In this document: one piece after another, positions 311 to 32,811 of the stretch
Position numbering within the stretch: position 1 is the stretch's first letter
Layout of the letters: each line of letters begins with the position of its first letter
DNA from: an uncultured Acidobacteriota bacterium
Lineage (GTDB): Bacteria > Acidobacteriota > Terriglobia > UBA7540
Reading direction: 5' to 3'
Length of the DNA stretch: 64,000 nucleotides
Assembly (NCBI GenBank): GCA_963804995.1
Contig: CAWDSK010000003.1
Span: 672,001-736,000, forward strand
Notes under the pieces: model-generated
Databases searched by the model: none
What the model was told of the DNA's origin: nothing
Seen by the model: the letters and a program-made list of their open reading frames with translations, nothing else
Translations under genes and position numbers: made by a program

Positions 311-375
311 TGAGCAATTTTGACCAAACGGGTGAGCAGTTCGGGACTGAAAGATGCTTCACCTCAGGATATAAG
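311..375 (+). promoter_or_regulatory. Tandem Crp/Fnr-like boxes plus -10 (promoter A)
   Basis: TGAGCAATTTTGACCA (311-326), TGAGCAGTTCGGGACT (333-348), 21 bp, TATAAG (370-375). Confidence 0.7.
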
Positions 376-539
376 GAGTGTGCTGCGAGGGCTCCGGCTG
401 CCTGACATCGCCGCCTGAAAGGTAGCAAGGAAAAAGAAGATGGGTGCTGAGAGCTCAAGGGATTTCCGGGCGGCGGGTGGCGCCCTTCTCTTAGAAGCCT
501 CCGCTAATGCTTGACCGCGAGGGGATAAGGAGGATACCG

Positions 540-764
540 ATGAGTAAATTCAGCTTAGGGCTTGTCCTGTTGATTATCGGTGCGGGTCTGCTTCTGGTGG
601 GTGGAGTTTCCTATACGACTCAAGACCGAACGAAGATTGGGCCCATCGCCATCGAGTATCCCGAGCAGCATCGCATTCCCTATTCGCCGCTCGCGGGAGC
701 GCTTCTGGCGGTGACGGGTGGTGCTCTGATGGTTACCGGGCGCGGCAAGAGCCATCAGTCGTAA
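540..764 (+). CDS. Small two-TM membrane protein, DUF3185-like
   Basis: AGGAGG RBS before ATG 540; two hydrophobic segments flanking YTTQDRTKIGPIAI...RIPYSPLAG. Confidence 0.7.
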   Translation: MSKFSLGLVLLIIGAGLLLVGGVSYTTQDRTKIGPIAIEYPEQHRIPYSPLAGALLAVTGGALMVTGRGKSHQS

Positions 765-855
765 TGCTGCGCGGATCGCGCACCTGGCAAGGCGCCCCCA
801 ACCGGCAGGCTTAGGATAGCCCGCCAGCAAGCATCCTTAAGAAATGGAGAAACAT

Positions 856-1374
856 ATGAAACCAAACAGCAAAACAGTATGGGCCAGAGTTATCTTCACC
901 TTTCTGATCACTGTGACGTTAGGACTAACCCTGATGCCGCTCGCTTCCGCAGGCGATCGTGGCGATGTTAAGAAGGTGCAGGAGACTCTGCGCGACAAAG
1001 GCTACTACACGGGGCCGGTCGATGGCATCATGGGCGACCAAACTCGGGCAGCTATTCGCCAGTATCAGCAATCTGAGAATCTGCCTGTTACAGGACATCT
1101 GGATTCCGGGACGGCGGGCAAACTTGGCGTGGGGCCGGAGTCGGTAGGCGGCGATTTTAAGGCCTCCGGCGAAGCGGTTGGAACGGGGGGCAAGGGAGTC
1201 GGCCATGAGATGAAGGAAGGCAAGCCCATCGCGGCAGGCAAGGAAATGGGCAAGGGTCTAGGCCGAGGAGGCAAGGACATCGGTAAGGGCGTCAAAGCAG
1301 CGGTCAGCCCCAAAAGCGACAGCGGTGACCGTGAAAAGAAGGCGAAAGCTGATTCCGAAAAGCAGCCGCAGTAG
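856..1374 (+). CDS. Secreted peptidoglycan-binding domain protein (PG_binding_1) with Gly/Lys-rich tail
   Basis: Signal peptide; VKKVQETL..KGYYTGPVDGIMGDQTRAAIRQYQQSENLPVTGHLD motif; start 844 or 856. Confidence 0.85.
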   Translation: MKPNSKTVWARVIFTFLITVTLGLTLMPLASAGDRGDVKKVQETLRDKGYYTGPVDGIMGDQTRAAIRQYQQSENLPVTGHLDSGTAGKLGVGPESVGGDFKASGEAVGTGGKGVGHEMKEGKPIAAGKEMGKGLGRGGKDIGKGVKAAVSPKSDSGDREKKAKADSEKQPQ

Positions 1375-1480
1375 GTAAGTTCTCAGCAATCGCTAGCGTC
1401 TCCCCCAGCAGTCTAGGGACGCAAGGGGCCCATGAAAGGAACTGGCGTCGACCAGGGCCGATGTGTGTCACAACCTGGAG

Positions 1481-1579
1481 AACGATGTGCTGGTGAGTCA
1501 GGTGATTCGGACCAACGAATTTCAAGTCTGGTTCCTTGCCGAGCATCTCGTGGATGTCCCGTTGACCGAGGCGAAGTGA
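1481..1579 (+). pseudogene. C-terminal remnant of a Dps-family protein
   Basis: Translates NDVLVSQVIRTNEFQVWFLAEHLVDVPLTEAK*, matching the Dps C-terminal helix as I recall it; rest of gene absent; not in ORF track. Confidence 0.65.
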
Positions 1580-1825
1580 AATGATTCCCGACTATGACTT
1601 GTCGAACCTGCCGGCTTCTCATATCGACCTGTGGATTTACCTCCGGGTCGATGCCATCTTCGACCAGATCATGGCTGATCAGGCCAAGCGCCTGGGATTC
1701 CCTCTCGATCCAGGGGACGGCACCGTTTCAGTCCTGATGGAGAATCCGCTGGCGAGACCGAACCGCGTATCACCGGGAGCGGACGCATAAGCGCCTGCCT
1801 CCGAAAACAAGGAGGTTCTAAATTT

Positions 1826-2038
1826 ATGTCCATAGTGCAAACACCTTTGGTACAAATCTTAATTGCTCTGGTCGTAGTGGGGGTTCTTCTCTGGCTTGTC
1901 AATACCTTCATTCCGATGGCGGGTTCCATCAAATCAATCCTGAATGCGGTCGTCATCATTCTGGTGGTTGTGTGGCTCCTGAATGTCTTTGGACTCATGC
2001 ATTACGTCACCCAGTTTCAAGTCGGCCACCGAGTGTGA
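1826..2038 (+). CDS. Thivi_2564-family small membrane protein
   Basis: AGGAGG RBS; LIVVGVLLWLVNTFIPMAGSIKSILNAVV-type signature. Confidence 0.8.
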   Translation: MSIVQTPLVQILIALVVVGVLLWLVNTFIPMAGSIKSILNAVVIILVVVWLLNVFGLMHYVTQFQVGHRV

Positions 2039-2067
2039 GGGTGCTCTTTAAAGGTCAGTTTTGAGCT

Positions 2068-3577
2068 TTATGGTACTTTGCTGATCAGTTGCGCAGGCGA
2101 TGGGAGCTGCGAGGCGTTCCAACCTCCACCGAGCGCCTCGATCAACCCTCCGCTGGCCGTCATCTGCTGAATTCGAAGATTGACCGCAGTTTCCTGATTG
2201 GATAGCAATGCGGTTTGCGCGGTAAGCACATTCAGGTAAGGATCGATTCCCAAGCTGTAGCGATCCTTGGCGATCGCGAGGCTTCTTTCCGCCGATTTGA
2301 CCGCCGTGTCCTGATATTGAATCTCCACCGACAGGATCCGCAGCGACGCGAGGTTGTCTTCAACTTGTTGAAAAGCCGTTAGCACCGTCTGCCGATAGTT
2401 GGCCACGGTCTCGTCGTACTGGGCTCTGAATTGCTCCACCGTGGCCCGGCGCAACCCCGCGTCAAAAAGGGTTTCCGCGGCTGCCGGGCCAACCGAGAAA
2501 AAGCGGCTCGGCCATGTGAACCAACTCGCGATCGAAGTGCTTTCGAGTCCTGCCGCGGCGCTTAACGTTACCGTCGGAAAGTATGCTGCCCTCGCAATGC
2601 CAATCTGGGCGTTGGCCTGAGCAACCTGGCGCTCTGCTGCGGCGATGTCGGGACGCCGCTCAAGAAGCTGGGACGGAACGCCGAGAGGGAATCGCCGGAG
2701 GGCTTGAGTTGAGCGGTTCGATGGGAATTGAAAACGTCGATGCCGGTTGGCCGGTCAGCATGGCGATGGCATGTTCAAACTGCGCCCGTTGGACGCCCAG
2801 AGCGGCATCCTGTGCTTGCGTGGCTTCGAGTTGAGTCTCGGCTTGCGCCACGGCTTCGTCCGAGTCGATGCCTGTCTCGTACAGAGCCCTGGTCAGATCG
2901 AGAGACTGTTGAAAAGCGACCACAGTAGAATCCAACAACTGCTTTAAAGCATCCTGTCCGCGAAGTTGAAAGTAATCCACAGCAACATCGGCCTGGACAG
3001 TGAGGCGGGTATTCTCCAGATCCGCCGCGCTGGCCTGCGCTCCGTAGGCAGCCGATTTGATCGTGTTCCGGATACGGCCGAACAAGTCCGGCTGCCATGT
3101 CGCATCAAACGGGAGGGTATAATCAGTAAATGTACTCGTCGAGGAAGATGTGGAACCTCCCGCTTTGCCACTGGATAATGTGGCCGACGGCCGTTGCACG
3201 GTAATGGCTGGGTTGGTCGTCACTCGAGGGAAAAGCTGGGATCGAGCTTCCTTGACCAGGGCGCGCGCGGCAAAAAAGCTTGCCGCAGCAGCGGCGATGT
3301 TTTGGTTTGAAACATTAACCTTCTCTTCCAGCGCATTCAACTGAGGATCGTTGAAAATCTCCCACCATTTACCGCGAAGCGCATCATCTTTCGGCTGCGC
3401 CACTTTCCAACCTTCCGTATTTTTGTAATCGGCGGGAGTGAGTTCCTTGTATGCCGCAGGAGTTTCCGCGGTCGGTGTGTGGTACTTTGGGCCGACCGTG
3501 CACCCTGCCAGGAGGCAAGATGTCACGGCGAGACACATTCTGGCTCTTAGATGGAAAGAAGTCATAATCTTATGCAC
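2068..3577 (-). CDS. RND efflux outer membrane lipoprotein (NodT/OprM family); +1 frameshift near 2685
   Basis: Lipobox LLAGC, WWEIFNDPQL, then (L)GVPSQLLERRPD in the shifted frame, and C-terminal ALGGGW. Confidence 0.9.
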
Positions 3578-3696
3578 CCCCTAACCCGCCCTTCCAAACC
3601 CGTGGTGAAAAATCCGGGATCGTGACATGCATTCTTTGTGGCGCCGCCGTCCCGGCGGCATTTTCCGCTGCGGCAAGATGCCGGCGCTACTCTCCC

Positions 3697-6600
3697 CTAA
3701 ACCGCAGCGCTGGGGGCTGGTCCGGCCCCACGGTCAAGGATAAGGATGTCGTGTTGCTTTCCGCGCATCCGTAGCCGCAGCCGGTCGAACGCCAAATAGA
3801 CGACCGGCGTTGTATAGAGCGTGAGCAACTGACTCAAGATCAGCCCTCCCACAATCGTGATGCCCAGGGGCCGGCGGAGCTCATACCCCATGCCCGTCCC
3901 CAGCGCCAAGGGCAGAGCGCCCAATAACGCCGCCATCGTGGTCATCAGGATCGGACGGAAGCGCAACATGCACGCTTCAAATATCGCGTCGGCTGGGCTC
4001 TTTCCCTCCTCGCGCTCTGCCTGAAGAGCGAAATCGATCATCATGATGGCGTTCTTTTTTACGATTCCGATCAGCAGCACAATGCCAATGATGGAGACGA
4101 TATTCAGATCCACTTTAAAGAGCAGCAAGGCGAGCATCGCGCCTACGCTCGCCGACGGTAAACTCGAGATGATGGTCAGTGGATGGACCAGGCTTTCATA
4201 CAAAATACCGAGAACGATGTACACCGCCAGCAGCGCCGTCAGAATCAGCACGGGCTCGGTGCCAAGAGATTGCTGGTAGGCCAGCAGCGTGCCGGCAAAA
4301 AAGCCTTGCAGCGTGGAAGGCGCGCCGAGCCGCTTTTGCATCTGGCTGATGCTCGATGTGGCATCGCTCAAAGACACGTTCGGCGCGAGGTTAAAGGACA
4401 CGGTGACCGAGGGGAATAAGCCCGTATGGTTGATGGCCAGTGGTGTTGTGTTGGCTTGGCCCTTGGCCACCGCGAGCAGCGGAATGTTCCTGCCGCTGGA
4501 CGTAAGAAGGTAGATGTCTTTCAATCCTTCCGGGCTTTGCCAATACTGGGGAGCAACTTCCAGCACCACGTAATACTGATTTAACTGCGTGTAGATGATG
4601 GACACTTGCGATTGGCCGAATGCGCCGTATAACGCCGAGTCCAGCGACTTTGCGGTAAGGCCGAGCTTTGCCGCAGTGACGCGATCATAGCTCATCAGCT
4701 CATCCAGACCGCCATTCTGCTGGTCTGAGCTTACGTCCTGCAGACCGGGCAGGCGCTTCATCGCACTCTGTAGGATCGGTCCCCACTTGGAAAGATCCTG
4801 CACAGTGTCGGTTTGGATCGTGTACTGGTACATCGCATTACCGGACCGGCCGCCGATGCGCAGATCCTGCACGGGTTGGAGGAACGCGGAAGCCCCCGGC
4901 AGACGGTTCAATTGGGGGCGCAGGCGATCGATGACCTGAGCGGCACTGACATTGCGTTCCGCCAGCGGCTTGAGCGCAATGTTGATGGAGCCGGTATTGG
5001 TGGCCCCACCGCCGCCACAAAACCCCGTCACATTGGCGACGGCAGGATCATTCTTGATCACGCCGATGATCTGCTGAAGGGCGTTGTTCGTCGCCGGGAA
5101 GGATGAATCCTGCGGCCCTCGCACCCCACCGGAGATCGCTCCCGTGTCCTCCACCGGGAAAAAGCCCTTGGGTATCTTGTAGATCAGCACCACATTGAGG
5201 GCGATGGTAAGGAAGAGTACGCTGAGGGTAAGGGCTGGATGGTCGAGCACCCAATGCAGCGTGCTGCGGTATAACGACAGCACCCACTCAAAGAACTTTT
5301 CGCTGGCCGTGAAGATGCGGCCATGTTTTTCCGCGCGCTCGTTTTTCAACAGGTAGGCGCACATCATGGGCGTGGTGGTCAGTGAGATGATCATGGACAC
5401 GAGAATGGCCGTCGAGAGGGTGACGGCAAACTCGCGGAAGAGACGGCCCACAATTCCGCCCATCAACAGAAGAGGGATAAAGACGGCAATGAGCGAAATG
5501 CTGATGGTGAAGACGGTGAACCCGATTTCTTTCGCGCCCTTCAGCGCCGCGGCAAAGGGCCTTATGCCGTTTTCCAGATGGCGCGTGATATTTTCCATCA
5601 CCACGATGGCATCATCGACCACAAATCCCGTTGAAATGGTCATGGCCATCAGCGAGAGGTTGTCGAGGGTATATCCGAACAGATACATCACTGCGAACGT
5701 ACCAATCAGCGAGACCGGCACAGCGACGGCGGGAATGAGCGTGGCGCGGCCGTTGCGCAGGAAGACAAACACCACGACGATGACGAGGCCGATGGAAATG
5801 AGCAGCGTCCTCTCAACGTCACCGACCGAGGCGCGGATGGTTGTGGTGCGATCAAGAACGATGGTGGTATCGATGCCCAGCGGAATGGATGCCTGGATAA
5901 CCGGAAGTTGCGCGCGTATGCGGTCGACCGTGGCAATGATGTTGGCGCCGGGCTGGCGGAAGATCATCATCGTAATCGCGCGCTTGCCGTTCAAATAGCC
6001 GGCAGCACGGACGTTCTGCACGGAGTCTGTTACCTGAGCGACATCGGACAGGCGGACCGCCGCGCCGTGCTTATAACCGACGACGAGCGGCTTGTAGTCG
6101 TCGGCGTGCGAGATCTGGTCGTTGGCAAGGATGTCTGCGGTCACCATGCCATCAGAGATTTGGCCTTTGGCCAGGTCGGCGTTTTGCAGGCTCAGCACGG
6201 ATTGCAAATTCGCAAGGGTAAGTCCATAGCTGGCCAATTGTGTGGGATTGGCGTCCACACGCACGGACGGCAACGCGCCACCTCCGGTATTGACCTGCCC
6301 TACGCCCTGTATCTGCGACAACTTCTGCGCGATGACCGTGGAGGCTTCGTCATAGAGTTTATCGGGACCGTATTTGTCGGAGGTAAGGCCGAGAATCATG
6401 ATCGGCGCATCGGCGGGATTGACCTTGCGAAAGGTCGGATTGCCCGGCAGATTGGCGGGCAGATAGGTTCGCGCCGCATTGATGGCGGCCTGCACATCGC
6501 GCGCCGCGCCATCAATGTCGCGGCTGAGGTCAAACTGAATGGTGACCGATGTGCTGCCGAGCGTGCTCGCGGAGGTCATCTCCGTCACTCCGGCAATATG

Positions 6601-6816
6601 ACCGAACTGCCGCTCCAGGGGAGTGGCGACGGACGACGCCATAATGTCGGCGCTGGCTCCCGGCAAGCCTGCACTGACGGAAATAGTCGGAAAGTCGACC
6701 TCCGGCAGGGGCGCTACCGGCAGCACCTCATACGCAACCGCCCCGGCAAGGGCAATCGCCACCGTGAGCAGCGTCGTAGCCACTGGCCGGCGAATGAAGG
6801 GTTCGGAGATGTTCAT
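3697..6816 (-). CDS. mdtC: RND efflux permease MdtC-like
   Basis: MNISEPFIRRPVAT, GFVVDDAIVV, GIVKKNAIMM, RFRPILMTT motifs; 1039 aa. Confidence 0.9.
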   Translation of the reverse strand: MNISEPFIRRPVATTLLTVAIALAGAVAYEVLPVAPLPEVDFPTISVSAGLPGASADIMASSVATPLERQFGHIAGVTEMTSASTLGSTSVTIQFDLSRDIDGAARDVQAAINAARTYLPANLPGNPTFRKVNPADAPIMILGLTSDKYGPDKLYDEASTVIAQKLSQIQGVGQVNTGGGALPSVRVDANPTQLASYGLTLANLQSVLSLQNADLAKGQISDGMVTADILANDQISHADDYKPLVVGYKHGAAVRLSDVAQVTDSVQNVRAAGYLNGKRAITMMIFRQPGANIIATVDRIRAQLPVIQASIPLGIDTTIVLDRTTTIRASVGDVERTLLISIGLVIVVVFVFLRNGRATLIPAVAVPVSLIGTFAVMYLFGYTLDNLSLMAMTISTGFVVDDAIVVMENITRHLENGIRPFAAALKGAKEIGFTVFTISISLIAVFIPLLLMGGIVGRLFREFAVTLSTAILVSMIISLTTTPMMCAYLLKNERAEKHGRIFTASEKFFEWVLSLYRSTLHWVLDHPALTLSVLFLTIALNVVLIYKIPKGFFPVEDTGAISGGVRGPQDSSFPATNNALQQIIGVIKNDPAVANVTGFCGGGGATNTGSINIALKPLAERNVSAAQVIDRLRPQLNRLPGASAFLQPVQDLRIGGRSGNAMYQYTIQTDTVQDLSKWGPILQSAMKRLPGLQDVSSDQQNGGLDELMSYDRVTAAKLGLTAKSLDSALYGAFGQSQVSIIYTQLNQYYVVLEVAPQYWQSPEGLKDIYLLTSSGRNIPLLAVAKGQANTTPLAINHTGLFPSVTVSFNLAPNVSLSDATSSISQMQKRLGAPSTLQGFFAGTLLAYQQSLGTEPVLILTALLAVYIVLGILYESLVHPLTIISSLPSASVGAMLALLLFKVDLNIVSIIGIVLLIGIVKKNAIMMIDFALQAEREEGKSPADAIFEACMLRFRPILMTTMAALLGALPLALGTGMGYELRRPLGITIVGGLILSQLLTLYTTPVVYLAFDRLRLRMRGKQHDILILDRGAGPAPSAAV

Positions 6817-11362: not shown

Positions 11363-11612
11363 TCGGAATCTCCTTTTTCAGCTCCGAATCCCTCGCAGGG
11401 TACTGCTCGTGAGCGGCTCCGCAAGGTACAAAATCCCGGGCTGGTCAGTCCCGGGTCCCTAAAGGGAGCGGAACTTACCTAGCCGCAAAACAACCGCCTT
11501 GCCCCCCTTGATCCGCAGCCTGAATTACGGAAGAGACGGCGCAGGCATGGGCAACGCGCCGCGCAGAATCCCAAGCCTTCGAAGTAAGCTGAAACTCGAT
11601 GCACAAGCTCAG

Positions 11613-11655
11613 AATCTAAGCAACCCCAGAACGCCTGTCTGTTCACAATTGCTCA
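11613..11655 (-). promoter_or_regulatory. Crp/Fnr-like box plus -10 upstream of mdtA (promoter B)
   Basis: Minus strand TGAGCAATTGTGAACA (11655-11640), 21 bp, TAGATT. Confidence 0.65.
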
Positions 11656-12634: not shown

Positions 12635-12658
12635 GGGTGCCCCTACGACGTGCTGGGG

Positions 12659-16025: not shown

Positions 16026-16091
16026 ATCCTAATTAAGTCAGGTCCTGCCTGTCTGCTCACAAGAGAACATCCATTTGTTCAAAACTGCACA
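16026..16091 (-). promoter_or_regulatory. Tandem Crp/Fnr-like boxes plus -10 upstream of ice-binding gene (promoter C)
   Basis: Minus: TGTGCAGTTTTGAACA (16091-16076), TGTTCTCTTGTGAGCA (16069-16054), 22 bp, TAGGAT. Confidence 0.6.
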
Positions 16092-19834: not shown

Positions 19835-19897
19835 GTTGATCCTCCCCCCTAATCTCCGTCTCCAGGCAGATCCGGGATGGAAGCTAGAGGCACACTT

Positions 19898-19962
19898 GTT
19901 ATAGCGTGGGGTGATTCTCGTGTCAGCCCCGTACTGCTCACCTGGCTGGTCATAATAGCTCA
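19898..19962 (-). promoter_or_regulatory. Tandem Crp/Fnr-like boxes plus -10 (promoter D)
   Basis: Minus: TGAGCTATTATGACCA, TGAGCAGTACGGGGCT (22-bp offset), 21 bp, TATAAC. Confidence 0.7.
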
Positions 19963-20067
19963 CCCAAGTTTTTGGGAGGCCTGTAGGGGGGGCCGGACGA
20001 AACTACGAAGGGTTCGTCGGGTTTGGAGGGGTGGGGCTTCAGCCCCGCCGTTACAAGGCCTTCCTGA

Positions 20068-22854: not shown

Positions 22855-22869
22855 ACGCTGCGGGCCGCC

Positions 22870-25137: not shown

Positions 25138-25217
25138 ATTTCCGTCCTGCGAGCACCGGCTCAGCCACCTGCCACCCGAGGCAGGCAAGCGATCCTGCAA
25201 GAACAGTTTCCGCCGCG

Positions 25218-25934
25218 CTACAGATGGTGCAGGGTGTCTTCCGCTTCCGGGCGCGGTTTGGGGTGGAACTGAGACTGCAACAGCTCCCGGGCAAGATCCC
25301 GGGCGCCCAAGCCGAAGGCAATGGCCATCGCCGTCACTAAACCGCCAAAGGTAATTGCAAAGGTTACAATAATGGTGGTGCGGCTGATCTCCAGTTCGTC
25401 CAGCGCGGCCACGACGGTCAACGCCATAACAAAGAAGCGGGTGATACCAGAGAGGAATCGCGCTGAGGGAAGATTGGCATTAACCGCAGCTATCAGCACG
25501 CTCCGGCCCAGAAAGCCACTGATCAGCACCCCGGCGATCAGGACCAGCAAGGCGGCCAGCAGATGGGGCAGATAAAGGAACACTCGTTCCGCCAGGTTCG
25601 TCGTCAGCGGCGTCCCCAGGGCGTTCAGTCCTGCCAGCATCGCCGTCAGCACAATCAGTCCTTGTATGATTTGGCCGGCCAGGTAGGAGCTTGACGGCGC
25701 CAGCCCCGTTCGTTGGACGATCAATCCCACGCCCAATCGGTCACACAGCCGATCGAAGCGCAGGACGCGGAGGATTCGGTAAACGATCTCCTTGGCGAGC
25801 CACCCCAGCAGCAATCCCAGCAGCAGGAGAACCAGCATCCCCACCAGGCTTGAAAGACTCGCCACCGCTTGCTGGCCCAGGTCCCGCAACGGCCCCCAAA
25901 CCGCTTGTTCCAAGAATCCTTTCATGGTTGTCAC
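25218..25934 (-). CDS. Mechanosensitive-channel TM-helix repeat protein (CmpX-like)
   Basis: Repeated TM_helix units; C-terminal AIAFGLGARDLA. Confidence 0.75.
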   Translation of the reverse strand: MTTMKGFLEQAVWGPLRDLGQQAVASLSSLVGMLVLLLLGLLLGWLAKEIVYRILRVLRFDRLCDRLGVGLIVQRTGLAPSSSYLAGQIIQGLIVLTAMLAGLNALGTPLTTNLAERVFLYLPHLLAALLVLIAGVLISGFLGRSVLIAAVNANLPSARFLSGITRFFVMALTVVAALDELEISRTTIIVTFAITFGGLVTAMAIAFGLGARDLARELLQSQFHPKPRPEAEDTLHHL

Positions 25935-27211
25935 CTCTTTTCACGAGCCCCCAGGGGCCATTGATTGATCAAATAGGGCTTCAACTGCTCGTAAATCAAG
26001 CAAAGTCTCTCAATGCAATCATTCGATTGGGCCACCGACTCGTTTTCCGTCTTTCCCGCAAAGGATGCCACCCATCCCAGGTAGAGCGGCGCCAGGGATT
26101 TCAGCAGGTGTTCGCGGTCGATCTCCCAGCGGTGGTAAGCAAGAGCGGCCTCGTAGATGAGTCCCACCCAAAGCTCCTCCCGCAGCGCGAACTTCTCGAC
26201 CGGGAGCGACGCACACGCATCAAGTTCTTTCAACTGCTGCGCAGTATAGAGCGTTTCATAAATGGGCCGCAGATCCCTGACCCCTTGCGTGAACGAGGCC
26301 ATTAGCTGCGGCCGAGGGATCGGCACCGCTTCCACCTCTGCCTTGAAAGGAGAGCCCAACAGAGGGGCGGGCAAGGAGCCCAGCACGTTCCGCCATACGG
26401 ATTCATAGGTCTCCATCAGGCTGAAGACGGATCCCACCACCTGAACCAGAACCGCGCCTAAGTCCGGCCCGGAATCTTTGGAATCGTGGATCCTGGCTCC
26501 CAGGTAGGACTGACAGACCCGGAAGTTCCCGGCCACAGCCGCGGTGGTCATCCAGATGTCGATACTGTAGCGAGCAACGTCCGTGTTCCACACGTCGCGC
26601 GCAAGAAAGTGGCGCACCAGGCGCCCGGAAATTCCGAACTCCCCGCCAATGGGTTGCCGGATGCGGCAGCCATACAGAGCCCGAGTCAGCGGGTAGACAA
26701 TGCTGCTGGTGATGGTTCCGTCATATTTGTGGCGGTTATAATAAGGGGCCACGTAATCGAAATCCTGCGCCAGAATGGGTTCGAGGAGCAGGTTGATCCA
26801 TTCCGGGTTAATGCTCTGGAGGTCCGCATCCACAATCACCAAGGCTTGGGCCTCGGCGAGCTCCGCAACTCGGAAGAGCGTCCGGAAGGCGTTCCCTTTG
26901 CCGGGCACGCCGTGATACGGAGTCGTGAGGTGATGCACGGGGTAGAGAGGATGCTGGATTATCAGCAGCGGTTGTGAATCGGTTTTCGCCCTTTGCGCAA
27001 TCTCCGGGGTGCCGTCCTTCGAGCCGCCATCGGAATTGACGATTAGAGCCTTATGGCCTGCCAGGTACTTGAGTAACCCGGCCTGTGCAGTCTTGACCAC
27101 GTGACCGATGGTGAGGGCGCTGTTGTAACTGGGAATTCCCACGACGATGTCAAACGGCCCCAGCTCGCCGAGCGTCTCCATCGCCTGATCTTTCAGGAGT
27201 TCTTCCGTCAA
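25931..27211 (-). CDS. GT2/GT-A glycosyltransferase, mannosyl/glucosyl-glycerate synthase-like
   Basis: VGIPSYN, NSDGGSKDGT, GKG, VDADL, RHKYDGTIT, IRQPIGGEF, IDIWMT. Confidence 0.85.
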   Translation of the reverse strand: MTEELLKDQAMETLGELGPFDIVVGIPSYNSALTIGHVVKTAQAGLLKYLAGHKALIVNSDGGSKDGTPEIAQRAKTDSQPLLIIQHPLYPVHHLTTPYHGVPGKGNAFRTLFRVAELAEAQALVIVDADLQSINPEWINLLLEPILAQDFDYVAPYYNRHKYDGTITSSIVYPLTRALYGCRIRQPIGGEFGISGRLVRHFLARDVWNTDVARYSIDIWMTTAAVAGNFRVCQSYLGARIHDSKDSGPDLGAVLVQVVGSVFSLMETYESVWRNVLGSLPAPLLGSPFKAEVEAVPIPRPQLMASFTQGVRDLRPIYETLYTAQQLKELDACASLPVEKFALREELWVGLIYEAALAYHRWEIDREHLLKSLAPLYLGWVASFAGKTENESVAQSNDCIERLCLIYEQLKPYLINQWPLGAREKR

Positions 27212-27269
27212 CGTGACCTTCTTCCAGCATTGTCTCTTCTTGCCTATTAGAGCCGATTATGAGGGTGCG

Positions 27270-27285
27270 GCATGACACGTGCCAA
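27270..27285 (-). promoter_or_regulatory. Putative sigma54 -24/-12 promoter of trehalose operon
   Basis: Minus TTGGCACGTGTCATGC with exact GG-N10-GC spacing, ~60 bp before the start. Confidence 0.55.
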
Positions 27286-27557
27286 ACACCCCCACTTTGG
27301 CTATCTGCCTGCTCCTGCGGCAAATCCGGCCGGTCCCCACAGGATGCAGGAAGTAAATTTGGGAAGGTTGCGTGGCAATTTTACCCTCGAATTCGCGGCG
27401 CGCCCAACCCCCGGTCATACCAACCGAAGACACTCTGGTTTTCAAACCGTGGCACGAATCGGGATTCCCATTCTGGGTCCCCGAGTCGCCGACGGTACAC
27501 CCCGGGTTTCCATTCATGAACCTTGACGCCAAGATCAAAACATCCCGGGCGGCGGGC

Positions 27558-27577
27558 TGTCTGTTCAAAAGTGCTCA
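27558..27577 (-). promoter_or_regulatory. Crp/Fnr-like box upstream of trehalose operon (site H)
   Basis: Minus TGAGCACTTTTGAACAGACA; no convincing -10 at 21 bp. Confidence 0.55.
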
Positions 27578-27636
27578 GCGGCAATCGGATTCGCCGCCGC
27601 TCGCCGCGAAAGCCGTATCCTGGCTGCCGGACTTAG

Positions 27637-27780
27637 GGATGCCTGGCCGGCCAGACGGTACGCATCTCCACGGCTGTCACGGTGACCAATTGCACGCTTT
27701 AGAGGATCGAGAAGTCGCTGATGGTGCGTCTGCTCCACGAGCAGCACGGCGTCTCGGAATTGTTCGTCACGCACCTCCTA
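27637..27780 (+). pseudogene. Internal remnant of a Crp/Fnr family regulator
   Basis: GCLAGQTVRISTAVTVTNCTL*RIEKSLMVRLLHEQHGVSELFVTHLL resembles the end of a cNMP-binding domain; in-frame stop. Confidence 0.7.
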
Positions 27781-27826
27781 CCATCCAAACTGTCACGACC
27801 AACCGCATACCCCACCCCCACTGCGC

Positions 27827-27891
27827 TGAGCAATCTTGACCTACGGCGTGAGCCGTACGGAACTGACACGCCTACCGAGAGACGGTATAAG
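27827..27891 (+). promoter_or_regulatory. Tandem Crp/Fnr-like boxes plus -10 (promoter E)
   Basis: TGAGCAATCTTGACCT (27827), TGAGCCGTACGGAACT (27849), 21 bp, TATAAG (27886). Confidence 0.7.
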
Positions 27892-27949
27892 CAGTGTGCC
27901 TCGAGTATCCGGTGAGAGGCAGAGGCAACAAGAGTGGGAGGCAATACCT

Positions 27950-28651
27950 ATGAAATACAATCGAGTTATCAGCACAGTAGTTCTGTTTTTACTCCTCGGA
28001 AGCACCCTTCCCGCCTTCGCGGAAAAAGGCGAGAAGGAAAAGGGTGGAGGCGGAGGTCAGGCGCCACAGGCACAGCACCAGGCGCAACCTCAGCGTGCCC
28101 AGCAGCAGCCGCAACGTGCCCAACAGCAACCACAACGCGCGCAACAGCAGCCGCAGCGCACTCAACAGGTGCAACGTCAGCAGCAGCCGCAGCGCACCCA
28201 ACAGGTGCAACGCCAGCAGCAACCGCAGCGCACCCAACAGGTGCAACGCCAGCAGCAACCGCAGCGCACCCAACAGGTGCAACGCCAGCAACAGCCGCAA
28301 CGCACGCAACAGGTGCAGGCCCAGCAATCACAGCGCGGGCAGTCCGGAAGGCAGCAATCACAGACCATGGCTACCAACCGTGGCGGTGGCGGCGGGGGCC
28401 AATACGGGCGTATTTCCAATGCCAATTACGGCGCCCACTTCGGGCATGACCACTCGTTCCACATGGGGCGTCCCCAGATGATCGGCGGGTATAACCGCTT
28501 CCAGTACGGCGGCTATTGGTTCGGGTTCAATGCCGGATGGCCCATCGGCTGGGACTACGACGACGACGTTTATGTCGAATACATCGATGGCGCCTACTAC
28601 ATGTTCGACCTGAGGCATCCGGGTATTCAGATTGCACTCAACATCTTTTAA
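27950..28651 (+). CDS. Secreted protein with Gln-rich tandem repeats and aromatic C-terminal domain
   Basis: GGAGG RBS, signal peptide (..PAFA), QQQPQRA x3 then 12-aa QQQPQRTQQVQR x~5. Confidence 0.85.
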   Translation: MKYNRVISTVVLFLLLGSTLPAFAEKGEKEKGGGGGQAPQAQHQAQPQRAQQQPQRAQQQPQRAQQQPQRTQQVQRQQQPQRTQQVQRQQQPQRTQQVQRQQQPQRTQQVQRQQQPQRTQQVQAQQSQRGQSGRQQSQTMATNRGGGGGGQYGRISNANYGAHFGHDHSFHMGRPQMIGGYNRFQYGGYWFGFNAGWPIGWDYDDDVYVEYIDGAYYMFDLRHPGIQIALNIF

Positions 28652-28878
28652 CGATCTATCCAGCACACCTTCGGGGAGGGATTCAACCGGCGCGGGCTGG
28701 GTGATTCGCCCCGGGGGCGAAGTTGGAGGAGGCCTTTGGCGTAAGTGGCACTTCAGCGGCTCATCATGCTGAGAGCTGTCATCGTGAATGGCCATGTTCA
28801 TCCAAAGCGCCGGGGGCAAATAATTCGATAATTACCGGGCTTCCAGCCTGTATTTCCCCCCCCGCCATTAATAAATCT

Positions 28879-28942
28879 TGGACAGTTTGAGACAAAGTGT
28901 GAGCAAAACAGAACAGATGCAGGAATCACCCCAGGGTACAAT
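28879..28942 (+). promoter_or_regulatory. Crp/Fnr-like box plus -10 (promoter F)
   Basis: TGAGCAAAACAGAACA (28900-28915), 21 bp, TACAAT (28937); degenerate distal box near 28879. Confidence 0.65.
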
Positions 28943-28956
28943 AAATTAAGATAACT

Positions 28957-31236
28957 GTGGAATCGGAATCTAAAATTCGAAAGATCGCCTTTCTTGGCGA
29001 TTACCTGCCACGTAAGTGTGGAATCGCTACATTCACGTCTGACCTCCTCACCTCGGTGGCAGCGGAGCACCCCCAAAGCCAGTGCTTTGCGGTGCCGGTT
29101 AATGATGTCGAGGAGGGGTACGAGTATCCCGGCGTGGTGCGTTTCGAAATAGAAGAGCAGGATCTCTCGTCCTACCAACGCGCGGCGGACTTCATTAACA
29201 TCAGTAACGTGGACATCGTCTGCGTTCAGCACGAGTTTGGGATTTACGGCGGGCCCGCCGGCCGCCATCTGCTGGCGCTGGTGCGCGAACTGAAAATGCC
29301 GGTTGTCACCACGTTCCACACGCTGCTGCGCGAGCCCAACGACACCCAGCGGCGCGTGATGCAGGAATTGGTTGCGCACTCGACCCGCCTGGTAACCATG
29401 ACCGAACGTGGACGCCAGATGCTGGAGGATATTTACAAAGCGCCCTCCGCCAAGATCGATCTCATTCCGCATGGCATTCCGGACATACCGTTTGTCGATC
29501 CCAATTATTACAAAGACCAGTTTGGCGTGGAAGGAAGGACGGTGTTGCTCACCTTCGGGCTGCTTTCGCCCAACAAGGGAATCGAGCATGTCCTGAACGC
29601 TCTCCCCCAAATTCTGGCGGAATTCCCAGACGTTGTTTACATTGTCCTGGGAGCGACGCATCCGCACGAGCTGGCGGAGCGCGGCGAGGCCTATCGTCTC
29701 AGCCTGGAAATCCTGGCCAAAAAGAACAAGGTTGAGAAGAGCGTCATTTTCTACAACCGCTTCGTGGAACTCGAGGAGTTGAAAGAATTCATCGGCGCGG
29801 CGGACCTCTACATTACCCCCTACCTCAACGAAGCCCAGATCACTTCCGGCACGCTGGCTTACACCTTTGGCGCCGGTAAGGCCGTGGTTTCGACCCCTTA
29901 TTGGCACGCCGCGGAATTGCTGGCGGATGAACGCGGTGTTTTGGTGCCCTTCGGGGACGCGAGCGCCATCGGACGCGAGGTAAATGGCTTGCTGGGCGAT
30001 GCGACACGCCGCCATGCCCTCCGCAAGAACGCCTACAAGCTGGGCCGCGAGATGGTGTGGAGCAACGTGGCGCGACTTTACATGCACAGCTTCGAGCAGG
30101 CTCGCCTCCAGGGCTCCTCGTTGTCCCGAAAGTTGTTCGCGACGAAGACTCTTGACCAGCAACCGCGGGAGTTGCCGGAGATAAGACTGGACCATCTTTC
30201 CCAGATGACCGATTCGACCGGCATTTTCCAACACGCCATTCTCACCGTGCCGAATTTTTCCCAAGGCTACTGCACGGACGACAACGCGCGCGCCTTTATC
30301 CTTTGCACGCTGCTCGACGAGTTAAAGGAAGAACCGGCACGGGTAGGGACGCTTTCCAGTACTTACGCCGCCTTTTTGAATTATGCCTTCGACAACAAAA
30401 CGAAACGGTTCCATAACTTTCTGAGTTTCGACCGCCACTGGCTGGACGAACAGGGGTCGGAGGATTGTCACGCGCGCGCGCTCTGGGCGCTGGGGGTGGG
30501 CGTAGGTCGCTCCCCGCATCGAAGTTTTCAGATCATGGCCGGACAACTCTTCGCGCGGGCCTTGCCAGTGGTTACAGAGTTTACCTCACCGCGCGCTTGG
30601 GCCTTCTGTCTTATCGGCATCCACGAATATCTGCGCCGTCTAAGTGGCGACCGCTTGGTCAGTCAAATCCGCGATGGGCTGAGGGCGCGGATGATGGATA
30701 TTTTCGACAGGGCCTCCCATCCGGATTGGCCCTGGTTTGAAGAGGAGTTGAGTTACGACAATGCCAAGCTCGCGCACGCCCTGATTCTCACCGGACGTGT
30801 GAACGGGTATCAAAAAGCGTTTGACCGAGGCCTGGGGGCTTTACGGTGGCTGGTGAAGGTGCAAACCTCCGAGAATGGGTGCTTCCGGCCCATCGGCAGT
30901 AACGGATTCTACCAGCGCGGCGGCACGCGCTCGAACTTTGACCAGCAGCCGATCGAGGCTCACGCCATGGTGTCAGCCTGCCTGGAGGCGTATCGCGCGA
31001 CCTCGGATTCCTGGTGGTACGAACAGGCCCATCGCGCCTTCGACTGGTTCTTGGGCTGGAACGACCTCGGGTTGGAACTCCACTCCGTCCAATCGGGCGG
31101 CTGCTGCGACGCTTTGCACGTGGATCGAGCCAACGCGAACCAGGGAGCCGAATCGACGCTGGCCTTTCTGCTTTCGCTGGCGGAAATGCAGCTCATGCAA
31201 AATGCCGTCACGGCGTTCAGCGAGCCGGCTTTGTAG
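28957..31236 (+). CDS. GT4 glycosyltransferase fused to a C-terminal six-hairpin-like domain
   Basis: PRKCGIATF, QHEFGIYGG, FGLLSPNKG, SGTL; C-terminal GYCTDDNARA, YDNA, FDQQP, NQGAEST. Confidence 0.9.
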   Translation: MESESKIRKIAFLGDYLPRKCGIATFTSDLLTSVAAEHPQSQCFAVPVNDVEEGYEYPGVVRFEIEEQDLSSYQRAADFINISNVDIVCVQHEFGIYGGPAGRHLLALVRELKMPVVTTFHTLLREPNDTQRRVMQELVAHSTRLVTMTERGRQMLEDIYKAPSAKIDLIPHGIPDIPFVDPNYYKDQFGVEGRTVLLTFGLLSPNKGIEHVLNALPQILAEFPDVVYIVLGATHPHELAERGEAYRLSLEILAKKNKVEKSVIFYNRFVELEELKEFIGAADLYITPYLNEAQITSGTLAYTFGAGKAVVSTPYWHAAELLADERGVLVPFGDASAIGREVNGLLGDATRRHALRKNAYKLGREMVWSNVARLYMHSFEQARLQGSSLSRKLFATKTLDQQPRELPEIRLDHLSQMTDSTGIFQHAILTVPNFSQGYCTDDNARAFILCTLLDELKEEPARVGTLSSTYAAFLNYAFDNKTKRFHNFLSFDRHWLDEQGSEDCHARALWALGVGVGRSPHRSFQIMAGQLFARALPVVTEFTSPRAWAFCLIGIHEYLRRLSGDRLVSQIRDGLRARMMDIFDRASHPDWPWFEEELSYDNAKLAHALILTGRVNGYQKAFDRGLGALRWLVKVQTSENGCFRPIGSNGFYQRGGTRSNFDQQPIEAHAMVSACLEAYRATSDSWWYEQAHRAFDWFLGWNDLGLELHSVQSGGCCDALHVDRANANQGAESTLAFLLSLAEMQLMQNAVTAFSEPAL

Positions 31237-31242
31237 CCACTG

Positions 31243-32698
31243 GTGAAAACCATCAAAATCCATCGCACGAATATCACGCTGTATCCGGACTCGAAGCGGG
31301 TCTTGCTGCGGCCGTTTCATTTCATGACCGGCCAGCGCGCCAGCGAGATTTGCGCCCACGTCATGGCCCTTTCCGAACCTCAAGCCGATAGCTTGCTGGG
31401 GCAGTTGTGGGCGGAATTCGGAGGACGTCACAAGAATATCCGGGAGTTCTTCCGGCGTCGATTCGAAGAGGTGCGCCCCTATTTGTTGAGCGACCATGCC
31501 CTCTCCGAAGAAAGGTCGTTGTTGATCGGCGGGTATTTCACCCACGAGTATTCCTTCCAAGCTGCGGCGTTGTTCAATCCCTCCATCGTACCGCACCCGG
31601 ACCAGTCGAACCTGGCCGATGGGGCGCAGCGTTTTGTCCTGAGCCTACGCGCCACGGGGGAAGGACATATTTCCGTCGATTACCTTTCGTACCGGGGTTG
31701 TGGACATCCAGGGAAACGTGGTGATCGATGCGCCCACCCGTTACAGCCTGGGGCCAGCGCTGGTGCCTGATGTTTCGTTCGAAAAGTGCCTGTTCGAGCG
31801 GAAACTCCGCGAACTCAACCTGATCGGCGCCTTCAGCCGGGAAGTGCTGAAACTCCTGGGAGAGCCGTTTACGCTGGAAGAACTGCGCACCAGTATCAAC
31901 CGGGCGGCAAAGGACCTCCGGGCGCATGACCTCGAAACCGAAAAAGTAGCCAAGAAGACTCTGGTCCTGGCGCAATCGTGCTTTGAAGTTCAGTTCGATG
32001 CGGACTCCTGTCTTTCCGAACGCGTGCTGTTCCCCTATACCGCCGTCCAAAGCCACGGCATCGAGGATGCGCGGTTTGTGCGTTTTCAAGACGACGATGG
32101 CAGGCGGACGTATTACGCCACTTTCACCGCCTACGATGGCAAAGAGATCCAGCCGCAGTTTCTTGAAACGCCTGATTTTCTTCATTTCAAATTCGCCACT
32201 CTGAACGGTCCGGCGGTCCGCAACAAAGGCATGGCGCTCTTTCCCAGAAAAATTAAAGGGCTCTACGCGATGCTGAGCCGGCAGGACTACGAGAACATCT
32301 ACGTAATGTTCTCCGACCATCTGCATCTATGGCGACTGAAGCAGCTCCTCCTGGGGCCCAAATTCCCCTGGGAGTTCATCCAGATGGGCAATTGCGGCTC
32401 CCCGATTGAAACCACACGAGGCTGGCTGGTGCTCAGTCACGGAGTGGGCCCCATGCGGAAATATTGCATCGGCGCCTTCCTGCTCGATCATGATGATCCT
32501 GCTAAGGTCATCGGCCGCCTGCGCGATCCGCTCATCGTGCCCAACCAGGATGAACGCGAAGGCTATGTCCCGAACGTGGTTTACTCCTGCGGCAGCCTCC
32601 TGCACGGTGGCCAACTGATTATTCCTTACGGGACCTCCGACCACGCCACAACCTTTGCCACGGTGCCGCTCGACGAAGTTTTGGCCGCGATGCAATAG
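31243..32698 (+). CDS. GH130-like glycosidase/phosphorylase; +1 frameshift near 31675
   Basis: AALFNPSIVPHPDQ, SLRATGEGHIS|SITFR, GIEDARFV, GNCGSPIET, REGYVPNVVYSCG. Confidence 0.85.
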
Positions 32699-32746
32699 TC
32701 CTATTCCTGAACGGCCCCACCTGAAAATCCCCCTCCTGAACTGGCC

Positions 32747-32811
32747 TGTGCAGTTTTGACCAAACGCGTGAGCGATGCTGAACAGACACGCCGATGATGC
32801 CAAGGTATAAC
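32747..32811 (+). promoter_or_regulatory. Tandem Crp/Fnr-like boxes plus -10 (promoter G)
   Basis: TGTGCAGTTTTGACCA (32747), TGAGCGATGCTGAACA (32769), 21 bp, TATAAC (32806). Confidence 0.7.

Follow-up and report, generated by a model that had tools for sequence, protein, structure and literature searches.

A rigid promoter module, in which two 16-bp boxes stand at fixed distances upstream of a core promoter, precedes about twenty stress-protection genes in the genome of this soil acidobacterium and recurs in its relatives. The regulators that switch it on are most likely CRP-like proteins of one Crp/Fnr-type paralog clade, whose genes lie next to the sites; the genes so controlled would form a general-stress regulon not described before. 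Judging from the sequence patterns, Crp-type dimers at -41.5 and -63.5 probably activate sigma70-type promoters whose -10 hexamer never ends in T. No published description of the two-box promoter module was found in the literature, and nothing was found in print on the coordination of stress or desiccation defence in Acidobacteriota.

Promoter sites in the window

The window, which is the whole 64-kb stretch of DNA analyzed here, had been predicted from its sequence to carry eight Crp/Fnr-like boxes read by one activator. All eight boxes are present where predicted, six of them as exact matches to TGWGC-N6-GRACW (333, 27849, 28900, and 32769 on the plus strand; 11640 and 27562 on the minus strand). 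The minus-strand box 19925 (TGAGCAGTACGGGGCT) has one mismatch to this pattern, and the minus-strand box 16054 (TGTTCTCTTGTGAGCA) is in the mirror orientation. The second boxes claimed for five loci lie exactly 22 bp upstream (311, 16076, 19947, 27827, and 32747). A hexamer likewise starts 21 bp after the box at six sites (TATAAG or TATAAC at 333, 19925, 27849, and 32769, TACAAT at 28900, and TAGATT at 11640) and 22 bp after it at one (TAGGAT after box 16054), and AGTGTG follows the -10 hexamer at 333, 19925, 27849, and 32769, as had been noticed. Box 27562 is followed only by TTTGAT, at 22 bp. The sites and one associated gene relic are as follows.

311..375, plus strand: class A module 1, with box 1 at 311-326 (TGAGCAATTTTGACCA), box 2 at 333-348, a -35-like element at 347-352 (CTGAAA), the -10 hexamer at 370-375 (TATAAG), and a predicted start near 382
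11613..11655, minus strand: class B single box of the RND efflux operon, at 11655-11640 (TGAGCAATTGTGAACA followed by GACAGG), with TAGATT at 11618-11613
16026..16091, minus strand: tandem boxes of the ice-binding-protein promoter, the distal at 16091-16076 (TGTGCAGTTTTGAACA) and the proximal at 16069-16054 (TGTTCTCTTGTGAGCA), followed by GACAGG and, at a distance of 22 bp from the box, TAGGAT at 16031-16026
19898..19962, minus strand: class A module 2, with box 1 at 19962-19947, box 2 at 19940-19925 (variant GGGGCT), -35 at 19926-19921 (CTGACA), -10 at 19903-19898 (TATAAC), and a predicted start near 19891
27534..27577, minus strand: class B single box of the trehalose operon, at 27577-27562 (TGAGCACTTTTGAACA followed by GACAG; one mismatch to the class B pattern), with a weak TTTGAT at 27539-27534
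27635..27790, plus strand: relic of a Crp-clade gene immediately before module 3; a stop codon stands in front of the reading ...RIEKSLMVRLLHEQHGVSELFVTHLL
27827..27891, plus strand: class A module 3, with box 1 at 27827-27842, box 2 at 27849-27864, -35 at 27863-27868 (CTGACA), -10 at 27886-27891 (TATAAG), and a predicted start near 27898
28878..28942, plus strand: degenerate tandem module, with a weak box 1 at 28878-28893, a good box 2 at 28900-28915 (TGAGCAAAACAGAACA), and -10 at 28937-28942 (TACAAT)
32747..32811, plus strand: class A module 4, with box 1 at 32747-32762 (TGTGC...), box 2 at 32769-32784, -35 at 32783-32788 (CAGACA), -10 at 32806-32811 (TATAAC), and a predicted start near 32818

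Module 1, which gave an nhmmer E-value of 7e-17 and served as a seed, stands before an 85-aa membrane ORF (507-764) and a PG_binding_1 protein (844-1374), and its boxes, -35, and -10 are all retained in the orthologous promoters of the relatives G090, G138, and G192. Module 2 precedes two genes, one for a DUF5670 small membrane protein (19834-19685) and one for a LolA-like protein (19565-18702), and its GGGGCT/GGGACT variant is conserved in orthologues. The target of module 3 is a Gln-rich secreted protein (27950-28651). A near-identical paralogous cassette of this module (C6:1668510) lies downstream of an intact Crp gene (C6:1668745-1669473), which is the intact counterpart of the relic, and 145 bp of the relic align at 79-88% identity in G090, G192, and G138. 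Behind module 4 (32816-36247) are a 167-aa ORF without assigned function, a 232-aa ORF, a VWA protein, and a sortase. The degenerate module, which precedes a GT4 glycosyltransferase (28957-31236) and a GH130 gene, was recovered by nhmmer from box 2 onward only (E 0.036), and its promoter stretch (28900) gave no BLAST alignment with the G192 orthologue.

The RND efflux operon begins about 280 bp downstream of box 11640, with its membrane-fusion gene from 11362, and the orthologous operon in G192 has TGAGCAATGTTGTACAGACAC at a different distance within unalignable surrounding DNA. The operon behind box 27562 (27211-20068) encodes a mannosylglycerate-synthase-like glycosyltransferase, an MscS-like protein, TPS, TPP, DUF5752, and TreT; in G192 and G268 the orthologues belong to different operons. 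The G090 orthologue of the ice-binding-protein promoter has three boxes in 22-bp steps. Within the original prediction of one regulon for all loci, the placement of the RND pump, the trehalose operon, and the ice-binding protein is weaker. These loci, counted as single-box sites, form a partly separate class, and single-box and tandem sites are distributed differently among genomes.

Enrichment and architecture of the module

TGWGC-N6-GRACW matches the window nine times, compared to a mean of 0.98 in shuffled sequence, and none of 100 shuffles reached nine. Genome-wide, this loose 16-mer has 112 matches against about 116 expected (the window shuffle expectation scaled to 7.55 Mb) and is therefore not enriched by itself. 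Enrichment over shuffled sequence is thus seen for the 16-mer in the window and is absent across the genome; genome-wide, it is the longer fixed module that is enriched. Two further matches in the window, at 6035 (plus strand) inside an AcrB-type gene and at 46429 (minus strand) inside a UxuA-like gene, look like chance expectation.

The module comprises 75 bases in total: box 1 (TGAGCAATTtTGACCA), 6 bp, box 2 (TGAGCngTacTGrACt), a -35-like cTGACA that overlaps box 2, 17 bp, and TATAA. Across 61 modules from six genomes, the invariant elements of box 1 are TGAGC, T, and TGACCA; those of box 2 and its flank are TGAGC, T, G, C, and GAC, with TATAA downstream. The spacer between the -35-like element and the -10 hexamer is variable in sequence over 15-16 bp, and a G occupies -14 in 51 of the 61 modules. 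The last -10 base is T in none of the 61, whereas the tRNA promoters of the same genome end in T (TAnnnT). The geometry is rigid: the two boxes are 22 bp apart in 53 of 58 scorable modules, and of the 53 modules scorable for the distance from box 2 to the -10 hexamer, 41 have 21 nt and another 10 have 22 nt. Box 2 shares 2-3 bp with the -35 and is centered at -41.5, with box 1 at -63.5, relative to the start predicted from the -10 hexamer. Genes with ribosome-binding sites follow the modules in the correct orientation, and 17 of 22 sites are outside any ORF of at least 150 aa in a genome with 82% of its length under such ORFs. These centers, the spacing, the intergenic positions, and conservation in orthologous promoters agree with the proposal that the boxes are promoter parts.

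The two-fold symmetry of a 16-bp, 5-6-5 operator is apparent in the boxes, as G2/C15 and C5/G12 are invariant complementary pairs and T1/A16 mostly so. In addition, the halves TGTTC, TGTGC, and TGTAC are found on either side of a box, and box 16054 is a mirror image. The inner two positions are consistently asymmetric, with TGAGC as the left half and GACCA or GAACT as the right. The boxes can also be read as direct repeats of TGAnC in 10-12 bp steps, an uncommon layout for a homodimer that counts against the reading as Crp-dimer sites.

Distribution across genomes was scanned with a 23-base skeleton of the module, with mismatches allowed. This genome has 5, 14, 20, 22, 23, and 24 matches at zero to five mismatches, respectively, and 40 of 251 genomes from the class, mainly of three families, carry the module, which is kept at orthologous promoter positions across genera. 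A reversed control pattern had no matches in sets of 41, 251, and 301 genomes. Targets genome-wide include CsbD, BON, trehalose, efflux, ice-binding, sortase, and small envelope genes, in line with the general-stress set that had been proposed. It is only the gene content that suggests desiccation as a putative signal.

A Crp/Fnr paralog clade linked to the module

Fifteen HTH_Crp_2 loci in the genome exceed the cut-off, and ten of these form one clade with three subclades (members include L002:5745-6473, L001:8479-9255, and the C6:1196580 type) and the recognition helix GTTRSRVSHFMNKF. Its members carry cNMP_binding and HTH_Crp_2 domains (Pfam, over cut-off). Seven of the ten loci are within 2.5 kb of a module, in addition to the relic in the window. 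One module is followed by a receiver-plus-Crp operon; the order module, receiver gene, Crp gene is common to G138, G211, and G257, and in G050 the receiver gene neighbors the Crp gene. Cassettes of a Crp gene followed by a module occur in at least nine other genomes.

All 33 genomes with a best Crp match of E 1e-90 or better have the module, and none of 211 module-negative genomes reaches this value, although the threshold was picked after seeing the table and related genomes are not independent. The module and the clade also co-vary within genera (g30, g21, g22, g32, g43, and g50), with the caveat that any gene of the island would in general co-vary with the module. One exception is G005, in which a clade member (E 7e-96) is accompanied by single boxes only and no tandem module. 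Moreover, seven module-positive genomes have no strong Crp match, six of them with one module match and G118 with three. Adjacency and co-occurrence together link the module to one paralog clade, in keeping with the Crp/Fnr-type regulator that had been predicted. That there is a single activator is doubtful because the ten clade members share the same recognition helix.

Among 23 clade sequences compared, 22 fit GTTR(S/L)RVS(H/Y)(F/Y)MNKF, 20 of these with GTTRSRVSHFMNKF, and the member in G029 reads GISRLRISNFMKKF. Heterodimers of paralogs with differing specificity, considered as an explanation for the asymmetric boxes, are disfavored because the helix is near-uniform. Autoregulation as a rule was rejected, as a box lies within 330 bp upstream of only two of the ten clade genes (plus the receiver-Crp operon). 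The lack of such a box at most clade genes also weighs against the proposed role of the clade.

Proposed mechanism and alternative explanations

In the mechanism that we consider probable, dimers of the Crp/Fnr clade would bind both 16-bp boxes, which are pseudo-palindromes of the form TGnnC-N6-GnnCA with centers about 41.5 and 63.5 bp before the predicted start. The proximal dimer would touch RNA polymerase in the class II manner, and the distal dimer may add a class III-type contribution. The -10 hexamer never ends in T, unlike in the tRNA promoters, which indicates a built-in weakness; the promoters would be weak by design and hence activator-dependent. Several paralogs with the same recognition helix may feed different signals into one gene set. 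A wider picture, put forward tentatively and as rather doubtful, is that the general stress response of these uncultured Terriglobia would run through a battery of Crp-like paralogs, with no dedicated stress sigma factor. The paralogs would share the helix and the two-box code, each would answer its own cue, one would be gated by the phospho-receiver with a zinc-ribbon tail of the same operon, and the promoters would be silenced by the non-T -10.

The same boxes and clade could instead serve repression, an unlikely alternative in which the proximal or both boxes occlude the near-consensus -35 until a stress signal arrives, or the distal box activates and the proximal shuts the promoter off at a high regulator level. 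With G at -14, the arrangement cTGACA-N17-TATAA could nearly work as a promoter by itself, box 2 overlaps the near-consensus -35 by 2 bp, and at M. tuberculosis whiB1 the -58.5 site activates and the -37.5 site represses (PMC2844151). However, occlusion would not need the base-exact spacing between box 2 and the -10 hexamer, which is typical of contact-dependent activation, and the lack of a final T in all 61 modules indicates promoters that need an activator.

Activation by Crp dimers would also be replaced if another DNA-binding protein, such as the receiver/zinc-ribbon response regulators behind some modules or some winged-helix regulator, read direct repeats of TGAnC every 10-12 bp and the Crp paralogs were only members of the regulon. 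We regard this as quite improbable, even though TGAGC, TGACC, TGAGC, and TGAAC follow one another at offsets 0, 10, 22, and 32. Receiver/CxxC-x20-CxxC genes are found at or beside modules or single boxes in three cases. In two of these the gene comes first behind the module or box, and in the third it stands on the opposite strand, next to a weak module and a Crp gene; one such gene is co-transcribed with a Crp gene. Nevertheless, the distribution of the receiver/zinc-ribbon protein does not fit that of a box binder, bearing in mind that 13 candidates per genome were scored and misses are possible. Such proteins were matched in none of 28 genomes of family f4 (13 candidates per genome scored), yet nine f4 genomes have the module, and they occur in 15 of 44 genomes of f10, just one of which has a pattern match (single, with three mismatches). 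None was found among the 13 candidates scored in G090, despite its 14 modules and the same promoter directly before a Crp gene. The mirror-image and symmetric box variants also favor a two-fold dimer. A comparison of the zinc-ribbon tail with the ESM Atlas gave no usable match.

It is very unlikely that the module is an extended promoter read without an activator by an alternative or group-2 sigma factor. The genome has three RpoD-like genes, and the -10 differs from that of tRNA promoters in never ending in T; still, the 45 bp conserved upstream of the -35 are not sigma-like. A dedicated RpoD-like paralog was rejected for lack of co-variation with the module: the RpoD paralog of L028 has no counterpart above 60% identity in the module-rich G090, G042, G138, G057, and G074, and one of at least 62% identity in every f7 genome with a listed best match, although 41 of 43 f7 genomes lack the module. 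The EcfG/ECF pattern GGAAC-N16/17-CGTT does not fit either, as GAAC is present without a conserved CGT 16-17 bp downstream and TATAA lies 22 bp after AAC.

It is close to negligible in probability that the repeats are non-regulatory, as mobile-repeat ends, a small RNA, or a small coding gene: some copies have an open short frame (e.g., 310-405, with boxes readable as MSNF(D/E)QT...) and two cassettes are recent duplicates, but box 2 of several copies contains an in-frame TGA (TGAACA/TGAACT), the invariant columns lack a three-base period, the spacer is free, and the window has no Rfam match. A MITE/REP-like repeat, which had been named as a check on the prediction, is opposed by conservation of the functional columns only, with free spacers, flanks and downstream genes that differ among copies, and orthologous promoter positions retained across genera.

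Significance

Acidobacteriota are among the most abundant soil bacteria, and a promoter code with a probable regulator would make their stress regulon readable directly from metagenome-assembled genomes. The module marks many uncharacterized small envelope proteins as putative stress proteins and offers a compact, testable system of one 75-bp module and three regulator subclades. If this reading is true, a Crp-family clade holds the role that sigma factors have in model bacteria. Two things keep the gain moderate: class II/III Crp activation is a textbook principle, and all beyond the sequence patterns is inference.

Comparison with known systems

The class II and tandem-site ("class III") promoters of E. 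coli CRP and FNR are the textbook systems. The module resembles the former in its 16-bp 5-6-5 operator with outer TG...CA, the predicted -41.5 center, and the -35 overlap, and the latter in a second site two helical turns upstream; the putative regulator likewise combines cNMP_binding and HTH_Crp_2. It differs in its half-sites (TGAGC, GACCA, and GAACT), in the strong and consistent asymmetry of the boxes, in retaining a near-consensus -35, and in a tandem layout that is a fixed rule here rather than the exception. CRP recognizes TGTGA half-sites and has R-S/T in its cAMP phosphate cassette, FNR and FixK recognize TTGAT (TTGA-N6-TCAA), and FNR carries an N-terminal Cys cluster. The half-sites here are neither those of CRP nor those of FNR, as originally stated, and the module alignment has no TTGAT halves. 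CRP proper was rejected (NCBIfam CRP 53-58 bits against a cut-off of 266; cassette R-M, R-I, or R-A; half-sites other than TGTGA), as were FNR (32 bits against 228; the clade sequences lack an N-terminal Cys cluster) and FixK (34-37 bits against 300; no TTGAT halves).

In Alphaproteobacteria, the general stress response is controlled by PhyR-NepR-EcfG at the promoter GGAAC-N16,17-CGTT. The gene content here is similar (CsbD, BON/OsmY-like, PRC-barrel, small envelope proteins, and compatible-solute genes). Control there is by an ECF sigma factor, whereas a sigma70-like core promoter with upstream putative activator boxes is found here.

The closest solved relative of the clade is M. tuberculosis CRP (Rv3676; best PDB match 3h3u, E 1e-21). 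The recognition helix is TRSRVSHF here and SRETVNKA in M. tuberculosis CRP. In the cAMP phosphate cassette, the conserved Arg is followed here by M, I, or A rather than by T, so cAMP binding by the clade proteins is doubtful. The whiB1 promoter similarly has tandem CRP sites about two turns apart, but they are at -58.5 (activating) and -37.5 (repressing), so that the proximal site represses (PMC2844151).

Also among the PDB matches of the clade protein is 5I2D, the T. thermophilus TAP complex, and the predicted geometry of the module matches the class II arrangement in it (PMC11253593). The same source describes SdrP (Thermus) and DdrI (Deinococcus) as CRP-family regulators of stress-type gene sets, presumed to be cAMP-independent; they are single proteins, in contrast to the ten paralogs here, they bind CRP-like TGTGA-type sites, and a fixed two-box promoter is absent from the passages on them (PMC11253593). 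Class II/III activation by Crp proteins is thus known, and what appears to be new here is the rigid two-box module as a fixed rule, with its own half-sites and its own putative Crp clade.

Promoter module and its geometry

Alignment of the sites resolved a repeated unit of about 75 bp, and a profile built from 13 copies found 20 places in the window genome at E < 1e-4, the 13 seeds among them. Its parts were compared in 61 modules, taken from this genome and from loci of five relatives.

Parts of the two-box module, from upstream to downstream
C-rich tract and AAC, just upstream of box 1
Box 1: TGAGCAATTtTGACCA
Spacer between the boxes: six variable bases
Box 2: TGAGCnGTaCtGrACt
-35-like hexamer cTGACA, formed with the GACAC after box 2 and overlapping box 2 by two bases
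-35/-10 spacer: 15-16 bases, unconserved
G at -14: 51/61 modules
TATAA (-10), often followed by AGTGTG

The geometry is rigid, with a 22-bp step between the boxes in 53 of the 58 modules that could be scored for it, and 21 nt (41/53) or 22 nt (10/53) from box 2 to the hexamer. A skeleton of 23 fixed module positions matched the genome 5, 14, 20, 22, 23, and 24 times at 0, 1, 2, 3, 4, and 5 mismatches, a plateau over an essentially nil background. The sixth base of TATAAn is A in 33, G in 20, C in 8, and T in none of the 61 modules (in the window at 375, 19898, 27891, and 32811). In a search scored towards T, the genome's tRNA promoters followed TTGACA-N16-18-TAnnnT; about 30 tRNA genes form an array within 4 kb (G000:C5:1304904-1309051, ARAGORN).

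The eight Crp/Fnr-like boxes of the original prediction were all recovered in position, as were the second boxes 22 bp upstream at five loci, the hexamers 21 bp after the box (22 bp at 16054), and AGTGTG at four sites. Six boxes fit TGWGC-N6-GRACW exactly, whereas 19925(-) has one mismatch (GGGGCT) and 16054(-) lies in mirror orientation (TGTTC-N6-GAGCA). This loose pattern has 9 matches in the window against a mean of 0.98 in shuffles, none of 100 shuffles reaching 9; the matches beyond the named sites, 6035 and 46429, are inside genes and compatible with chance expectation. Genome-wide enrichment did not materialize for the 16-mer alone, since its 112 occurrences in 7.55 Mb compare with about 116 predicted from the scaled shuffle figure.

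Two further elements accompany the module. A cccCnC tract with AAC, about 20 bp upstream of the GACC of box 1, recurs in most modules as a candidate third half-site or UP-like element. About 9 of 20 module leaders have in common a motif resembling ATCyGGTGaGAGGCrGA, located 16-27 nt past the -10; this count is descriptive, as the reference motif came from the same leaders.

Accompanying elements
About 290-310; 19965-19985 (-); 27805-27826; 32725-32746: C-rich tract/AAC, window
27899-27925; 19890-19860 (-); 32820-32850: leader motif, window
C3:670656, C3:195714, C6:1668510, C6:1685681, C6:1698821: leader motif, elsewhere in the genome

In the leader of a MacA/MacB-type efflux operon (L004, after C3:195714 (-)), a perfect 10-bp GC-rich hairpin, GGTGGGAGGC...GCCTCCCACC, directly follows the leader motif and may be an attenuator.

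The module is a promoter, and not a gene, RNA, or transposon. Conservation is limited to columns at fixed positions, with no constraint on the -35/-10 spacer. Of 22 sites, 17 fall outside all ORFs of at least 150 aa, though such ORFs cover 82% of the genome. A gene in matching orientation, with a ribosome-binding site, comes 40-320 nt downstream. Orthologous promoters in three relatives (G090, G138, and G192) keep the boxes, -35, and -10; that of the ice-binding protein has three boxes at 22-bp steps in G090 versus two in the window. Rfam gave no match over the window, and a small coding gene (MSNFDQT...) was rejected, its frame being open in some copies and broken by TGA in others. The ice-binding-protein leader also holds a 43-codon ORF with a lipoprotein-like signal (15905-15774 (-), MALLQVVFVAAC...), in a region kept in G090.

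Downstream genes and the single-box class

Genes behind the boxes
Window, module: small membrane protein and peptidoglycan-binding protein
Window, module: DUF5670 protein and LolA-like protein
Window, module: Gln-rich secreted protein
Window, module: GT4 and GH130
Window, module: unknown ORF, VWA, sortase
Window, listed under single boxes: RND pump; ice-binding protein
Window, single-box operon: mannosylglycerate-synthase-like GT, MscS-like protein, TPS, TPP, DUF5752, TreT
Rest of genome: BON proteins, CsbD (55.8 bits, cut-off 40), Ysc84, MacAB-type pump, TolC-like protein, many small secreted/membrane proteins
Family f3: superoxide dismutase, encapsulin with EncFtn, G6PD, phospholipase C, ice-binding protein

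The gene content is that of a general-stress set; the "desiccation" of the proposed regulon is an inference from these genes. At 43516-45444 (+), a zf-HC2 anti-sigma-like gene comes after an ECF-type sigma gene, with no link to the module seen.

Single-box sites read TGAGCAATnnTGAACAGACA, and their weaker hexamer lies 21-22 bp further along. In the window they precede the RND and trehalose operons; OmpA/PEGA, FecR-like, and radical-SAM genes and one receiver/zinc-ribbon gene also have such a site in front. Within the genus, 19 of 24 genomes carry them at no more than one mismatch; outside the genus they are absent from all 16 genomes, among them those of f3, where the tandem class occurs. The control pattern gave 0. 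Two genomes without the tandem class, G005 and G013, carry single boxes, and a box of this type is kept before the G192 RND operon in otherwise unalignable DNA. Because their distributions differ, the two classes are related but partly independent, and grouping both classes in a single regulon is where the original prediction is weakest. The leader of the RND membrane-fusion gene (about 130 nt, 11365-11500 (-), approximate), without an Rfam match, is almost identical in G192, where the DNA upstream is unalignable.

Distribution across genomes

The skeleton, at up to three mismatches, is present in 21 of 41 relatives. Of 251 class genomes sampled at 90% completeness or higher, 40 carry it.

Genomes with the skeleton, by family
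f1: 22/41
f3: 5/5, sites clustered in 20-30 kb islands
f4: 9/28
f7: 2/43
f10: 1/44
Eight other families of the class draw: 0

At up to two mismatches in a 301-genome phylum draw, it occurred only in the window genome and in two genomes that belong to a single family of a different class. No genome searched contained the reversed control pattern.

Candidate reader of the boxes

HTH_Crp_2 (PF13545) exceeds its cut-off at 15 places in the genome, and ten of these form one clade with the recognition helix GTTRSRVSHFMNKF and three subclades; no NCBIfam equivalog was reached. Seven of the ten genes lie within 2.5 kb of a module or degenerate module (chance about 0.16, for about 24 modules). A relic of an eleventh (27635-27790 (+), ...RIEKSLMVRLLHEQHGVSELFVTHLL after a stop codon) lies directly upstream of the module at 27827; G090, G192, and G138 preserve this DNA at 79-88% identity and have an intact gene there. 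One module drives an operon made of a receiver gene and a Crp gene; module, receiver, and Crp keep this order in G138, G211, and G257, and the two genes adjoin in G050. Cassettes of a Crp gene followed by a module firing away occur in at least nine other genomes.

Examples of cassettes, module/Crp gene
G138:C1 55350/55750
G257:C609 910/1190
G249:C325 617/889
G192:C5 648826/649127
G164:C48 81219/81340

Among the 251 genomes, the best match to the Crp of locus L002 was at E 1e-90 or better in 33, every one of which carries the module, and none of the 211 module-negative genomes attained that value (best values 3.6e-89 and 3.2e-88). This threshold was picked after the table was seen, and the genomes, where related, are not independent samples. 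Such a match is missing from seven module-positive genomes, of which six have one module match and G118 has three. More telling than overall co-occurrence are contrasts within genera: in g30, two genomes have both Crp and module and four have neither, and contrasts also occur inside g21, g22, g32, g43, and g50. G005 is an exception, with a clade member at 7e-96 and single boxes only; G009, G016, and G024, only 80-84% complete, have neither boxes nor Crp. Proximity and co-occurrence together tie a clade of Crp/Fnr-type regulators to the module.

The boxes might instead be read by receiver proteins, response regulators of about 190 aa with a receiver domain and a C-terminal CxxC-x20-CxxC zinc ribbon that has no Pfam model (L001:9274-9849 (-); L015:1036-1614 (+); L014:1991-2599 (+)). 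One of the three genes is that of the operon shared with a Crp paralog, described above. The distribution of the receiver proteins does not track the module: with 13 candidates per genome scored, none was found in 28 f4 genomes or in G090, and they are present in 15 of 44 f10 genomes, only one of which had a single weak pattern match. As to sigma factors, the tested one of three RpoD-like sigmas is absent at >60% identity from module-rich genomes and is present at that level in every f7 genome with a listed best match, the module being absent in 41/43 of f7. An ECF-type promoter does not fit the spacing. The RpoD-like paralogs at G000:C3:85285-86997 and C6:780558-782270 share 79% identity with one another and 56% with the third RpoD-like gene. 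Upstream of the C3 gene, at 218 bp and just after TAGAAT, is a box-like TGTTCAGTTTTGGACA.

Proposed mechanism and comparison with known systems

If the hexamer occupies -12 to -7, box 2 covers -49 to -34 with its midpoint at -41.5, and the midpoint of box 1 falls at -63.5, all relative to the predicted start. A Crp-clade activator would then occupy a class II site plus an upstream site, an arrangement like that of tandem-site CRP promoters. The boxes are pseudo-palindromes, TGnnC-N6-GnnCA, and the halves TGTTC, TGTGC, and TGTAC are used on either side, which fits a two-fold dimer as the predicted binder of each box. The inner bases are consistently asymmetric; heterodimers of differing specificity are unlikely because the paralogs share one recognition helix. 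A -10 never ending in T may be a built-in weakness, through which a good -35/-10 pair would need the activator. The protein could also act as a repressor, or in a mixed design as at M. tuberculosis whiB1, where PMC2844151 describes an activating site at -58.5 and a repressing one at -37.5.

Full-text literature searches found no published account of a motif or regulon of this kind in Acidobacteria. The nearest solved relative of the clade is M. tuberculosis CRP (E 1e-21), and cAMP is a doubtful ligand, judging from the protein sequences, because M, I, or A follows the conserved Arg of the cAMP cassette. SdrP and DdrI are described in PMC11253593 as cAMP-independent stress regulators of the CRP family.
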